Sequence record: PQ400057.1
Length of the DNA stretch: 32,592 nt
Direction: 5' to 3' (one strand)
Source: a phage
Shown here one piece after another: positions 3,673-31,074 of the stretch. Under the pieces are notes generated by a model that was not told the DNA's origin, searched no databases, and saw only the letters and a program-made list of their open reading frames with translations. A program made the translations under genes and the position numbers. Numbering within the stretch: the first letter of the stretch is position 1; each line of letters begins with the position of its first letter.

Positions 3673-3695
3673 TCTCCCTATAGTGAGTCGTATTA
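3673..3695 (-). promoter_or_regulatory. phage RNAP promoter phi17 (class III consensus)
   Basis: The reverse complement is TAATACGACTCACTATAGGGAGA exactly, upstream of gene 17 and overlapping the gene 16 stop. Confidence 0.85.
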
Positions 3696-10999: not shown

Positions 11000-11022
11000 T
11001 CTCCCTATAGTGAGTCGTATTA
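11000..11022 (-). promoter_or_regulatory. phage RNAP promoter phi13 (class III consensus)
   Basis: The reverse complement is TAATACGACTCACTATAGGGAGA, just upstream of gene 13. Confidence 0.85.
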
Positions 11023-11052: not shown

Positions 11053-13443
11053 TTAAATACCGGAACTTCTCCGTAAGTAGTTACCTTCCCAGCCACACCC
11101 AATGATGTTCAGAGGGGTAGTCTCATCTGACAAGATGTATACTGTATTGAACTTGGCGTTGCCCACCACAGGGAATCGGTATTGTCCGGTCCCTAAGTTC
11201 AATCTCCCAGCCCTCAGAGCGTTAGAGCCTAATCGCGCGCCAGCCATTGTGTACTTCCAGTTGGACGATTGGTTCTCAACATAAATGTCAAATGTGCCAG
11301 ACTCCTCATAGTTAACCCACGCTCGGCGTAACTGTAAACGACCAATGTCTTCCGTGGAGGTAGACCCATCGTCGGCAGTTTGCTTAATGAGGAACTTAGA
11401 GAACTCATAGACGAAGTGTATGTTGAACCCAATGAACACTTCACGTCCCTCTAAGTTACCACTGAGTCTCAGCCAAGGGTCACTATTCCACCCACCAGTT
11501 GGTTGCTCACATACGGTTATCTTACCATCAGGCTCCAATACTGTGATTGTGTCCCTCCCGAAGTTTGCACCACCATAAATGGTTGGAATATGGATAGAGG
11601 TAGTGAACGTGTCATCGTTGTATGTTCCACTCGGAATCGTGTAGCGAATCTTCATGTCCATAAAGGCACGGTAAGGTTCACCTTGTAAATCAATGGCGTT
11701 CTTAGTGAAAGAGATTTTAGCTAGGAACGTATTGAATTCATTACGAAGAATAACGTACATATCTGAGTTGATGCTCTGGCACGCTAGAACCTGCACGTTT
11801 GCCCCAAAGTCCCAATGGGACCACGACTGTTGTCTTAACTCTTCGTTCAGGTACAGGAATTTGTACATGAAGATTTTACTTGGGTCCCCTTGAGATAGTA
11901 CCGAACAGAAGTTTTCCGTACCACTGCCGCAAATACTAAACACACCATTTGGGATATAGTTAGGAACATGTGCTGTAATGTCCTCAGCGTTCTTAACGGA
12001 ACTGACATCCTGCACAGCGTAGTACCTGTGGATGGACGTGTAGCTGGACCTCGGACTAGCAAAGTAGACATTACGCCCAATCCCATAAGGTCTCGCTCGG
12101 TCCTGTACATCAAACTGGGTCGTTAGGTTCAACTCAACTGACTTCGACGTGAGAGTACCGGAAGCAGTCAGGACGAACTGAGCTTCGTCTGACCAAATGA
12201 GCAACTCCTCAGAGAACGGAACGGCATACTTAAGGATTGCGATTCGGTTGGTACTCACAGCCACATCAATAGGGTCATCGTCACTCAAGTTAGCGATTGA
12301 CGCTGGGTAGAAGTTGAAGTACTTAGCGGTTCTACTCAGGATGATATTCTCACCACTAAGGAAACCCAAACGGTTACGGAAGAAGAACACATCGTTGATT
12401 GTGGAGTCCATGAAGGAAGGCCATGGGTTTGTATCGTCATCACCGCAGGTTTTAGGGTTCCACTCAAGCCATCTGAACTCAAAGTTGCCATCAGAAGCCC
12501 TAACGAGTGCATGTGGCATCGTTTCATATAGAAGCTGATTGTTAACGTTCCATCCCAGTGTCTCCACCCATACTTTGCGAGTAGCATCATATCTGACGTA
12601 ATATTGATCAGCAGACTTTGACGCATCCCCTACGATTTTCACCATGTATCCATCAGGAGCGTTAGGTGGCAGCTTAGAGAACGACTGAGCGTAGTGAGTA
12701 ACAGGATTAATCAACTGGTCCGCATAACCATCCTTAGTCACTAGGGAGTTAATCTCACCAGCAGCGTCAGCAATAATGTGAATGAAACCCTGTCCAACGT
12801 TAAAGGTCCATCCGGGAGTATTTGCCCGAAGTTGTCGCGCAAGTTCCTCAGCGAGCCATTGAGCATCCGTGTTATTAACATGTGCTGGCTGTGAGCCATC
12901 AGGAATCTGGTAGCTTGCTTGGGTTCCACCGTTTATCTGAATCTGTAGTGTTCTACCATATTGACCACCACGAACGTTGATTAGCGCATCCTTCTTAGGG
13001 TTAAACCCAGGAAGGTTTACCGAGTTGGGATTGCGTGCTACCCTTACGTTTCTGTTAACGATGAACGTATAATCAGCCACAGTGACCATCCTCAAGTCAT
13101 TCCTTGGGTTTGCAGTGTTTATATACGAGGAACCATCTGTAGGGTATCGCACCTGTTTTTCGTTACCAGCAAGGTCAAACACACGGATTCCTGTCCCAGT
13201 GAACACAGCGTAATACTGTTCGTTTTCGTCACGGTTAATCAGATGGATGTAAGGTGCTTGTCCTAAATCACCGCTTCCTCCTAGGGTCTTAAGGAAAACC
13301 ATAGGTGGACGCTTTTGGAGGCCCTCGGTCTCCGAAGACCAACCGTTAACCTGACGTGACCCTTGGTCTGGATAACGAAGGATGTCAGGCTGTTGACTGA
13401 TACCACCCTTCAAGTTCTTAATTGATTGGCTAATGAGTGCCAT
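11053..13443 (-). CDS. 12: tail tubular protein B
   Basis: The 796-aa ORF MALISQSIKNLKGGISQQPDILRYPDQGSRQVNGW... matches T7 gp12. Confidence 0.95.
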   Translation of the reverse strand: MALISQSIKNLKGGISQQPDILRYPDQGSRQVNGWSSETEGLQKRPPMVFLKTLGGSGDLGQAPYIHLINRDENEQYYAVFTGTGIRVFDLAGNEKQVRYPTDGSSYINTANPRNDLRMVTVADYTFIVNRNVRVARNPNSVNLPGFNPKKDALINVRGGQYGRTLQIQINGGTQASYQIPDGSQPAHVNNTDAQWLAEELARQLRANTPGWTFNVGQGFIHIIADAAGEINSLVTKDGYADQLINPVTHYAQSFSKLPPNAPDGYMVKIVGDASKSADQYYVRYDATRKVWVETLGWNVNNQLLYETMPHALVRASDGNFEFRWLEWNPKTCGDDDTNPWPSFMDSTINDVFFFRNRLGFLSGENIILSRTAKYFNFYPASIANLSDDDPIDVAVSTNRIAILKYAVPFSEELLIWSDEAQFVLTASGTLTSKSVELNLTTQFDVQDRARPYGIGRNVYFASPRSSYTSIHRYYAVQDVSSVKNAEDITAHVPNYIPNGVFSICGSGTENFCSVLSQGDPSKIFMYKFLYLNEELRQQSWSHWDFGANVQVLACQSINSDMYVILRNEFNTFLAKISFTKNAIDLQGEPYRAFMDMKIRYTIPSGTYNDDTFTTSIHIPTIYGGANFGRDTITVLEPDGKITVCEQPTGGWNSDPWLRLSGNLEGREVFIGFNIHFVYEFSKFLIKQTADDGSTSTEDIGRLQLRRAWVNYEESGTFDIYVENQSSNWKYTMAGARLGSNALRAGRLNLGTGQYRFPVVGNAKFNTVYILSDETTPLNIIGCGWEGNYLRRSSGI

Positions 13444-13463: not shown

Positions 13464-14054
13464 TTAGCGAGTCAGTAGACCAGAAGTGAACGCATCGCCA
13501 TCCAGCATATTGTACCCACCGTAGTCCACTTCGTACTCCATACAGAGACGTCTAGCCTCATCTTCCTCTTCTTGGAGTACACCCTCTACTTCCGGTGCCC
13601 CAAAGAATCGGTTGTTGAACTGACGGGAAGCCTTGGTGACAATCCAATAACGGAAACATTCAGGCATCTCGTCGTAGTCACGAAGGCGAATAATGTTAAC
13701 GGTAATACCAGAGTCAAATCGGTCTGTCTGGCTCGTTCGGTCATACACATAGCCACCTCGGTTCACGTAGATTGATTGACCGGAAGTAGCCATTAGGGAC
13801 AAATAGTCGTCACTGTATACAATCAGGTTGGAGTAAACATCAGGTAATAGCGTTATGCCTTCCTCAATGTTGAACGTCCATCCACGAGACTGAATCTGAC
13901 GGTTAATCTTGTTGAGAATACGCCGAGCGTTCGCTACGTCTGCGTTAGAGTCACCTTCCAGCGTCGATACCGGAGGTTCTCCGATAGATGCCAGAATGTC
14001 GTTCACAGCGGATAACTCAGCGGCAGTCTCAACGTTCATATCGTATGAGCGCAT
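13464..14054 (-). CDS. 11: tail tubular protein A
   Basis: The 196-aa [31 protein letters not shown]... matches T7 gp11. Confidence 0.95.
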
Positions 14055-14070
14055 ATAGTTCCTCCTTTAA

Positions 14071-14119
14071 GCAAAAAACCCCTCAAGACCCGTTTAGAGG
14101 CCCCAAGGGGTTATGCTAG
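14071..14119 (-). terminator. Tphi-type terminator for phage RNAP (GC hairpin plus U-tract)
   Basis: The reverse complement is CTAGCATAACCCCTTGGGGCCTCTAAACGGGTCTTGAGGGGTTTTTTGC, the T7 Tphi hairpin sequence, between genes 10 and 11. Confidence 0.85.
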
Positions 14120-15315
14120 TTATTGCTCAGCAGTGGCAGCAGCCAACTCAGCTTCCTTTCGGGCTTTGTTAGCAGCGCGGGTGCGTGCGGCCTTCTGTGC
14201 TGGCGTTAAGGTTTCTTCTGTTGAAGTAACACTCACCTCTTCGGGACTAGCAGCGACCGTTGAGGTCACTCCCAGCATTACTCCCCCGTGAAAACCACTG
14301 CACCAGCAGCTTCTGGGCGCAGACCACCGTGGCCCATTGCGTACTTAGCGATAATCTGGTCCGCTTGGAAGTTAGCACGGCGAGCGCGCTCCAGAGCCAA
14401 GTCACGCAGCTTAACAGTACCTACCGCAGAGCGGTGCATGAACAGGCCGATAACGTTGTCCTTAGCAACCTTGGCATTACCATCACCTTTATTGGCAGGG
14501 AAGACGTGCTTCTGACCAGTAGTGCCCTCGCGAGTGGTACCAGCGCCACCAGCGGTGAGGTGCGGAACTTCTACAACCTCAAAGCCCATAACGTTGCGGA
14601 TAGAACCCTTCTCAGGGTCAATCAGAGCAGCGTAGTTTGCTGCGTTCGGCATAAGTGCTGCCAGAATCGCAGAGTAGCTATCTGGGTCACAGTAGAACAC
14701 ACGGTCAGCAGCCGGAACGTAGTTCTTGGTCAGAGCCGCACGAGCCTTAGTCAGAGCCGCAATAATCTCCTTACCAAGCGCAACTTGGTCGGTAAGTGCA
14801 GACTTGTTCTGAGTGGTCTCAATTACGGTAGCAGTACCTAAGCCCTCGATGTTCTCATTATATTGGCTTTCCACGTTACACAGACCAGCAATCTCTGCCA
14901 GAACCGCACCGTCCGCAGCCATCGCCAGAGATTCACCTAACTGAGAGGTGTACTCGGAGCGAACATCATAATGGTTCATCGCGTCCTCAATATCGTAAAT
15001 CAGAACGTCAGCCGTCAGGAGACCATCAATGGTGATTACCTTCTCGGTGTGTTTGATGTCCTTACGTTTATCGTCGAGGTTCTCACCCGGAGCCAGATAC
15101 GCTGCCTGAGTGCGACCCAGAACAGGGAACTGAGCGGATTTACCGCTGGAGATGGAACGGACCATGTGGCGAGAAGTGGTCACAGAGGTACGAGCGAATG
15201 CGGTCAGAACTTCACCGCCAAATACCTTCAAGAACAACGCCAGTTTATCGGCACCAGCACTTACGCCTTTACCTTGGTTAGTACCAATTTGCTGTCCACC
15301 AGTCATGTTAGCCAT
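14120..15315 (-). CDS. 10B: minor capsid protein 10B, predicted -1 frameshift extension of 10A
   Basis: The slippery G GTT TTC lies just before the 10A stop. The -1 frame stays open about 52 codons to a TAA at 14120 and encodes ...SPEEVSVTSTEETLTPAQKAARTRAANKARKEAELAAATAEQ, like the T7 10B tail. The frame offset is consistent with a -1 shift. Confidence 0.5.
14278..15315 (-). CDS. 10A: major capsid protein 10A
   Basis: The 345-aa ORF MANMTGGQQIGTNQGKG... is near-identical to T7 10A (T7 has MASMTGGQQMG). It is preceded by the strong gene 10 leader with AAGGAG. Confidence 0.95.
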   Translation of the reverse strand: MANMTGGQQIGTNQGKGVSAGADKLALFLKVFGGEVLTAFARTSVTTSRHMVRSISSGKSAQFPVLGRTQAAYLAPGENLDDKRKDIKHTEKVITIDGLLTADVLIYDIEDAMNHYDVRSEYTSQLGESLAMAADGAVLAEIAGLCNVESQYNENIEGLGTATVIETTQNKSALTDQVALGKEIIAALTKARAALTKNYVPAADRVFYCDPDSYSAILAALMPNAANYAALIDPEKGSIRNVMGFEVVEVPHLTAGGAGTTREGTTGQKHVFPANKGDGNAKVAKDNVIGLFMHRSAVGTVKLRDLALERARRANFQADQIIAKYAMGHGGLRPEAAGAVVFTGE

Positions 15316-15377: not shown

Positions 15378-15400
15378 TCTCCCTATAGTGAGTCGTATTA
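15378..15400 (-). promoter_or_regulatory. phage RNAP promoter phi10 (class III consensus) with GGGAGACCACAACGGTTTCCC leader stem-loop
   Basis: The reverse complement is TAATACGACTCACTATAGGGAGACCACAACGGTTTCCCTCTAGAAATAA...AAGAAGGAGACATACATATG, the gene 10 promoter and leader. Confidence 0.9.
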
Positions 15401-16416: not shown

Positions 16417-16439
16417 TCTCCCTATAGTGAGTCGTATTA
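16417..16439 (-). promoter_or_regulatory. phage RNAP promoter phi9 (class III consensus)
   Basis: The reverse complement is TAATACGACTCACTATAGGGAGA, upstream of gene 9 and overlapping the gene 8 stop. Confidence 0.85.
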
Positions 16440-19348: not shown

Positions 19349-19371
19349 TCTCCCTATAGTGAGTCGTATTA
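19349..19371 (-). promoter_or_regulatory. phage RNAP promoter phi6.5 (class III consensus)
   Basis: The reverse complement is TAATACGACTCACTATAGGGAGA, upstream of gene 6.5. Confidence 0.85.
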
Positions 19372-27677: not shown

Positions 27678-27697
27678 TCTCCCAATAGTGAGTCGTA

Positions 27698-27700
<3 letters not shown>
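27678..27700 (-). promoter_or_regulatory. phage RNAP promoter phi2.5
   Basis: The reverse complement is TAATACGACTCACTATTGGGAGA (-1 is T instead of A), overlapping the end of gene 2 and upstream of gene 2.5. Confidence 0.8.
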
Positions 27701-31051: not shown

Positions 31052-31074
31052 TCTCCCTATAGTGAGTCGTATTA
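31052..31074 (-). promoter_or_regulatory. phage RNAP promoter phiOR (class III consensus) near the genome right end
   Basis: The reverse complement is TAATACGACTCACTATAGGGAGA, between gene 19 and gene 19.5. Confidence 0.8.

Follow-up and report, generated by a model that had tools for sequence, protein, structure and literature searches.

The gene 10 slip site, -1 frame tail and Tphi terminator of a mosaic T7-group phage and their conservation among relatives

Introduction

The 10A/10B frameshift of phage T7 goes back to the work of Dunn and Studier (1983), Condron, Atkins and Gesteland (1991) and Sipley et al. (1991) (cited in PMC1635266 and PMC5009743). The T7 heptamer is given as G_GU U_UUC, a G_GU variant of the X_XXY_YYZ pattern on bacterial ribosomes (PMC5009743). 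About 10% of the product is reported to be 10B, with 10A and 10B standing at about 9:1, and this ratio is described as variable without harm to the particles (PMC1635266; PMC8365609). 10B itself is reported as a 397-residue fusion (PMC8365609). Moreover, the CCCC run of the Tphi terminator is the distal element reported to stimulate the frameshifting of T7 gene 10 (PMC5009743).

Related systems differ from that of T7 in several respects. T3 and phiYeO3-12 also shift to the -1 frame a few codons before the 10A stop and carry a C-terminal extension on a fraction of the capsid subunits, but their heptamer is C CCA AAG and their tail is longer, with 84-94 residues that form an Ig-like Big_2 domain. 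Another comparison is with the bacterial -1 sites of E. coli dnaX and of the IS911/IS3 type, which share with the locus studied here the tandem tRNA slippage on a heptamer, the use of bacterial ribosomes and a fixed ratio of two products. Their heptamer is a strict X XXY YYZ (A AAA AAG), and it is accompanied by an upstream Shine-Dalgarno sequence and by a stem-loop 5-9 nt downstream. In contrast, the X XX of our locus is G GU, its nearest hairpin lies 13 nt downstream, and the reported stimulator is about 180 nt away in a terminator (PMC5009743).

Results

Genome context

The window is the whole stretch of phage DNA that was analysed, sequence record PQ400057.1 of 32,592 nt, with the late region on the minus strand. 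Over 25 kb, all catalogued phages are at most 92% identical to it, the top one being Cedecea phage Yanou, and because none exceeds this level the window is classed, from sequence comparison, as a mosaic and uncatalogued Teseptimavirus. Gene 10 has its best matches in T7 records, at 96.1-96.2% nucleotide identity. The last 371 bases of the gene 10 region match best with phage 13a (EU734174), at 98.7%, and the heptamer context TTCACGGGGGAGTAATG is identical in both phages, whereas 13a is not among the 40 best full-gene matches and the body of the capsid gene is that of T7 at 96.1%.

The features of the region are collected in Table 1. The product of gene 10A matches the Pfam family Gp10A-like (E 1.5e-113) and the T7 10A chains in the PDB (E 5e-216, residues 1-342 aligned), and its C-terminus is ...AAGAVVFTGE, followed by TAA. 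The promoter of the gene 10 transcript stands at the place equivalent to that where phi10 is annotated in T7. The 23-nt consensus of T7 class III promoters was found at seven sites in the window and at none in shuffled sequences; six of the copies are perfect and one has a single mismatch, and the phage therefore uses promoters of T7 RNA polymerase specificity. These occur despite an overall identity of at most 92% to any catalogued genome. Gene 11 starts after Tphi, and the -1 frame tail is therefore not an extension into the neighbouring gene.

Table 1. Features of the gene 10 region and T7-type promoters in the window (positions of the whole stretch)
Feature	Position	Strand	Basis or remark
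Gene 11 (tail tubular protein A)	13464..14054	-	ORF list and annotation of T7, 13a and phiA1122
Tphi intrinsic terminator	14071..14112	-	terminator scan: 15-bp hairpin 14112..14077 and T run
CCCC run, Tphi 5' arm	14110..14107	-	180 nt after the heptamer; identical to T7
-1 frame tail of 10B	14120..14290	-	translation: 56 codons (HGGVMLGV...AATAEQ), TAA 14122..14120
Conserved tail core LTPAQKAARTRAANKA	14162..14209	-	tail residues 28-43
Predicted proximal hairpin, candidate cis element	14246..14276	-	MFE folds; GCUGG.AGUGACC-UCAAC-GGUCGCU.CUAGU
Gene 10A, major capsid protein	14278..15315	-	ORF list; 345 codons, zero frame, stop TAA 14280..14278
Slippery heptamer G GTT TTC	14290..14296	-	Val341-Phe342 in the 10A frame, -1 shift site
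phi10-type T7 RNA polymerase promoter	15378..15400	-	perfect match to TAATACGACTCACTATAGGGAGA; starts the gene 10 transcript
Perfect promoter consensus copies	3673-3695, 11000-11022, 15378-15400, 16417-16439, 19349-19371, 31052-31074	-	
Promoter consensus copy, single mismatch	27678-27700	-	

Slip site

An earlier note on this DNA had located G GTT TTC three codons ahead of the 10A stop and had called it a conserved gene 10 -1 frameshift site, and both points were borne out. Exactly three sense codons (ACG GGG GAG) stand between the heptamer and the TAA, and the heptamer and its distance to the stop are the same in T7, where G GUU UUC occupies codons 341-342. T7 differs in the four bases directly after the heptamer (post-heptamer bases ACGGGG in the window, AAAGTG in T7); its 10A ends in FKVE and that of the window in FTGE, while the -1 frame reads QSGV in T7 and HGGV in the window. 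The efficiency of the shift could differ from the roughly 10% of T7, because these post-heptamer bases and base 31 of the proximal hairpin (A versus G) are not the same.

The window heptamer is not a strict X XXY YYZ with full re-pairing of both tRNAs, because the P-site re-pairing from GUU to GGU has a central mismatch. No GGAG-like element was seen upstream of the heptamer in the window sequence. Right after it lies a run of five G (CGGGGGA, 14282-14288 on the minus strand), where T7 has AAAGTGG. The run lets tRNA-Gly re-pair perfectly after a -1 slip, and it yields a GGGGGAG, similar to a Shine-Dalgarno sequence, immediately ahead of the ATG at 14278. It is common to the window, 13a and several relatives and is not conserved group-wide.

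The heptanucleotide GGTTTTC is by itself not above chance, with 3 copies in the window where 3.8 are expected, but relatives conserve it to a degree that far exceeds chance. Gene 12 contains another in-frame G GTT TTC (Met-Val-Phe), at 13294-13300 on the minus strand. There the -1 frame stops after one codon, and a slip would only truncate gp12. This copy serves as an internal control, and the heptamer alone is not diagnostic.

For the comparison we used 80 loci that encode relatives of 10A with 77-97% amino-acid identity. An in-frame G GTT TTC stands 2-6 codons before the stop in 71 of 81 sequences, the window counted. Five T3-type loci (L022, L024, L025, L026 and L028) have C CCA AAG instead, and their -1 tails are Ig-like Big_2 domains; five other loci have the variants A GTT TTC (L013, L020), C GTT TTC (L019), T TTA AAG (L030) and G GTA AAG (L069). 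Among the distinct sequences that encode x-Val-Phe at this place, 70 of 73 keep the heptamer, against 16.7% expected from the codon usage elsewhere in the gene. The nominal P values of this comparison are overstated because related sequences were treated as independent, but its direction is unambiguous.

The -1 frame tail

The -1 frame from base 14290 is HGGVMLGVTSTVAASPEEVSVTSTEETLTPAQKAARTRAANKARKEAELAAATAEQ and opens with CAC GGG GGA GTA ATG. The predicted 10B consists of residues 1-342 of 10A and the tail of 56 residues; it is 398 codons long as in T7, exceeds 10A by 53 residues and has an expected size of about 41-42 kDa. Its junction would read ...AAGAVVFHGGVMLGVTSTVAASPEEVSVTSTEETLTPAQK, with the predicted tryptic junction peptide YAMGHGGLRPEAAGAVVFHGGVMLGVTSTVAASPEEVSVTSTEETLTPAQK. 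The earlier note had described a 10B-like tail of about 52 codons that ends in the TAA at 14120, just before the Tphi hairpin. The likeness to 10B holds, with 51 of 56 residues identical to the T7 tail (five substitutions), and so do the position of the stop and its neighbourhood to the hairpin: the gap is 8 nt, as in T7. The length has to be corrected, because the figure of about 52 codons takes the ATG overlapping the 10A stop as its starting point, and from the slip there are 56.

An open frame of this length is only slightly unusual against shuffled tails, 11% of which are stop-free over 56 codons, but none of 7219 stretches of 56 codons in the -1 frame of other minus-strand genes is stop-free, and gene 10 is the only gene of the window whose long -1 extension past the stop ends short of the next gene. 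Among the 80 relatives, all but one keep the -1 frame open for 37-92 codons past the stop, and the +1 frame closes within 2-17 codons. The tails fall into three families: a short T7-type family of 44-58 residues, which includes the window; the T3-type family, which is Ig-like (Pfam Big_2, E 9.6e-16); and a third family of 96 residues in genomes like those of Klebsiella phages, with 36 loci among L029-L084. A Pfam search of the window's own tail found no family.

Within the short family, the dN/dS of the tail against the window is 0.17-0.66, and the minimum changes by codon position of the -1 frame are 52/56/92, with most in third positions. The core LTP[AQ]QKAA[RI]TRAxNKA is nearly invariant in 32 distinct short-type tails and stays fixed even where synonymous sites are near saturation (pS 0.6-0.77). 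Moreover, the indels of the tail come in multiples of 3. The pattern is that of a tail under purifying selection in the -1 frame, which evolves as coding sequence. Six close relatives, once aligned, show column-by-column conservation of heptamer, tail frame and Tphi. In 60 of the 80 relatives, no ATG of the -1 frame lies close to where the tail begins; in a Vi06-type phage with a window-like tail, a 24-nt in-frame deletion is present and the overlapping ATG is lost (TAACAC versus TAATG).

The public records treat this tail in different ways. For T7 (NC_001604) the record gives a joined CDS for 10B and also Tphi, both at homologous positions. The record of Yersinia phage phiA1122 likewise has a joined 10B CDS, for a minor capsid protein 'translated via frameshift'. 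In the 13a record the tail is left as a misc_feature that 'may be translated via slippery sequence', and in the record of Serratia phage Pila it is a CDS of its own with a ribosome binding site.

Terminator and proximal hairpin

Tphi of the window is identical to that of T7, CCCC run included, and is invariant in 15 T7-type sequences, which is why no covariation could be obtained for it. The segment 14071-14125 on the minus strand, that is Tphi and the preceding 12 bases (TAACTAGCATAACCCCTTGGGGCCTCTAAACGGGTCTTGAGGGGTTTTTT), is essentially invariant in 15 T7-type genomes (L006-L019 and L030). This conservation is stronger than that of the neighbouring coding sequence, and the tails and flanks differ. 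An alternative partner for the 5' arm of Tphi was also sought. The best duplex fell on the region of the proximal hairpin in 9 of 12 T7-type sequences; it was rejected because it surpasses shuffled sequences by just about 1.8 sd and the GUGACC variant of the window weakens it.

The predicted proximal hairpin has 12 bp and starts 13 nt after the heptamer, against a usual spacing of 5-9 nt; a weaker outer stem that starts 1 nt downstream of the heptamer is not conserved. Between window and T7 two pairs differ, A-U in the former and G-U in the latter. In 17 distinct T7-type sequences, 96.1% of the cells of this hairpin are paired; the variation among them is confined to A/G opposite U, and none of it is double-sided. 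The data are thus compatible with the hairpin of the window's lineage but do not demonstrate it as a conserved RNA element. An Rfam search of 13900..14500 at E<=1 gave no match.

Strong hairpins are also predicted in other lineages with unrelated tail sequences, 13-27 nt downstream of the heptamer. The loci with the 96-residue tail have an 18-bp hairpin from about +27 to +69, counted from the heptamer (alignment columns 27-69). In it, two stacked pairs change on both sides: 9 distinct sequences have G-C in place of A-U, and 7 have U-A in place of C-G. Of the cells, 98.8% are paired versus 35-52% for slid controls. Read in the -1 frame, the double-sided changes alter the amino acid (Thr/Val and Ser/Pro). 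For that lineage the covariation suggests that the RNA structure itself is under selection within the 10B-type coding region. Taken with the hairpins of the other lineages, it hints at an RNA element conserved in position.

On visual inspection the proximal hairpin, in its 5' arm and loop (CCUCAACGGUC, 14250-14266, minus strand), looks similar to the matching part of Tphi (CCUCUAAACGGGUC, 14085-14103, minus strand), and the similarity reaches to GGGG(G)..GGCCUC in T7. It could be due to chance or be the remnant of a duplication.

Discussion

We consider it very probable that the site is the programmed -1 ribosomal frameshift of T7 gene 10. The comparison with relatives marks it as orthologous to the T7 site, which is known from experiments, and in this sense it is already known and ordinary. 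The conservation of the heptamer, the selection on the tail and the lack of a start codon in most lineages together support a fusion made by frameshifting.

One other reading is that the tail is a separate gene, with ribosomes restarting at UAAUG (ATG 14278..14276) after the 10A stop and making a free peptide of 52 residues. The ATG does overlap the stop, the purine-rich GGGGGAG lies just upstream, the Pila record has the tail as its own CDS, and PHROG has a 52-residue profile named 'head protein' (phrog_12582) that begins at the Met of the tail. However, only 2 nt lie between the GGAG and the ATG, a spacing shorter than a normal Shine-Dalgarno sequence requires. The -1 frame ATG is missing in three-quarters of the relatives and was lost in the Vi06-type phage, and in those phages the tail can be reached only from the 10A frame. 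The PHROG profile is a product of gene callers that are unable to model frameshifts, and a start codon with a ribosome binding site of this type was not found conserved among the homologues. T7 10B is, moreover, reported as a fusion (PMC8365609). We regard a restart as highly improbable. Still less credible is the reading in which there is no recoding at all, the open -1 frame being a by-product of an untranslated spacer and terminator and the heptamer being plain Val-Phe codons. The chance-level frequency of GGTTTTC, the in-frame copy in gene 12 without a -1 ORF and the share of shuffled tails that are stop-free would all fit it. Against it stand the purifying selection on the tail, its frame-preserving indels and its invariant core across near-saturated lineages, the conservation of the heptamer at synonymous sites, and the folded domains (Big_2) that other lineages carry at the same -1 position.

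A further reading keeps the frameshift and moves the slip wholly or partly to the G run, where tRNA-Gly would pass from GGG 14286..14284 to the GGG one base upstream in C GGG GGA. The product would have the same length and read ...VVFTGGVMLG..., with FTGGVM in place of the FHGGVM of a slip on the heptamer. Five G follow the heptamer (ACGGGGGAG) in the window, in 13a and in several relatives, and the P-site re-pairing would be perfect in the -1 frame. But T7 is without the run (AAAGTGGAG), and the group as a whole does not conserve it, having AAAGTG in T7, AAGACG in the phiA1122 type and AAGCCG in the Vi06 type, whereas the heptamer is kept in all of them. Besides, slippage of a single tRNA is generally inefficient unless the A site holds a hungry or stop codon. 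As the site of the shift the G run is therefore about as improbable as the restart, and at most it would be a minor additional route.

For the preferred reading, a slip on the heptamer, we propose the following course of events. Most ribosomes on the capsid mRNA from phi10 to Tphi would read GUU UUC ACG GGG GAG and stop at UAA, giving 10A of 345 codons. A minority would slip back by one base when GUU occupies the P site and UUC the A site, tRNA-Val re-pairing on GGU at two of three positions and tRNA-Phe on UUU. These ribosomes would continue with CAC GGG GGA GUA AUG until UAA 14122..14120 and yield 10B. From experiments on T7 we infer that slippage occurs in the window phage at roughly 10%, that its 10B is made and enters the capsid with an exposed tail, and that Tphi, through the CCCC run of its 5' arm, probably boosts the shift.

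The question touched by this locus is how a terminator some 180-200 nt downstream stimulates the shift. A tentative and rather unlikely possibility is that the hairpin at 14276..14246 represents an element that is conserved in position and variable in sequence after the slip sites of T7-like genes 10, and that it cooperates or competes with the 5' arm of Tphi. If true, the interplay of hairpin and Tphi would be a concrete model for the long-range effect of the terminator on T7 gene 10 frameshifting. The downstream hairpins of several lineages and the invariant Tphi offer testable constructs and do not give an answer by themselves. Slip site, tail and terminator travel together here, as a nearly unchanging module within a T7-group genome that is mosaic elsewhere.

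In annotation, the tail of 10B should be given as a joined, frameshifted CDS, and neither as a free 52-residue 'head protein' nor as non-coding sequence; both misannotations occur in public records. In one relative (L078, IMGVR_UViG_2700988866_000001) the heptamer is intact, and a premature stop leaves a tail of 19 codons that ends just before the LTPxQKAA core. This locus may be a natural truncation of the 10B tail.

Finally, the end of the tail (14120-14180, minus strand; AANKARKEAELAAATAEQ) is found at the C-terminus of many unrelated PDB chains (for example 4iqz_A, 4pg4_A and 6kuq_A), and an acidified version of it near the N-terminus of 8rcx_A. We rejected these matches as natural homologues; most likely they reflect read-through of pET-type vectors into the T7 terminator fragment and a tag derived from 10B.
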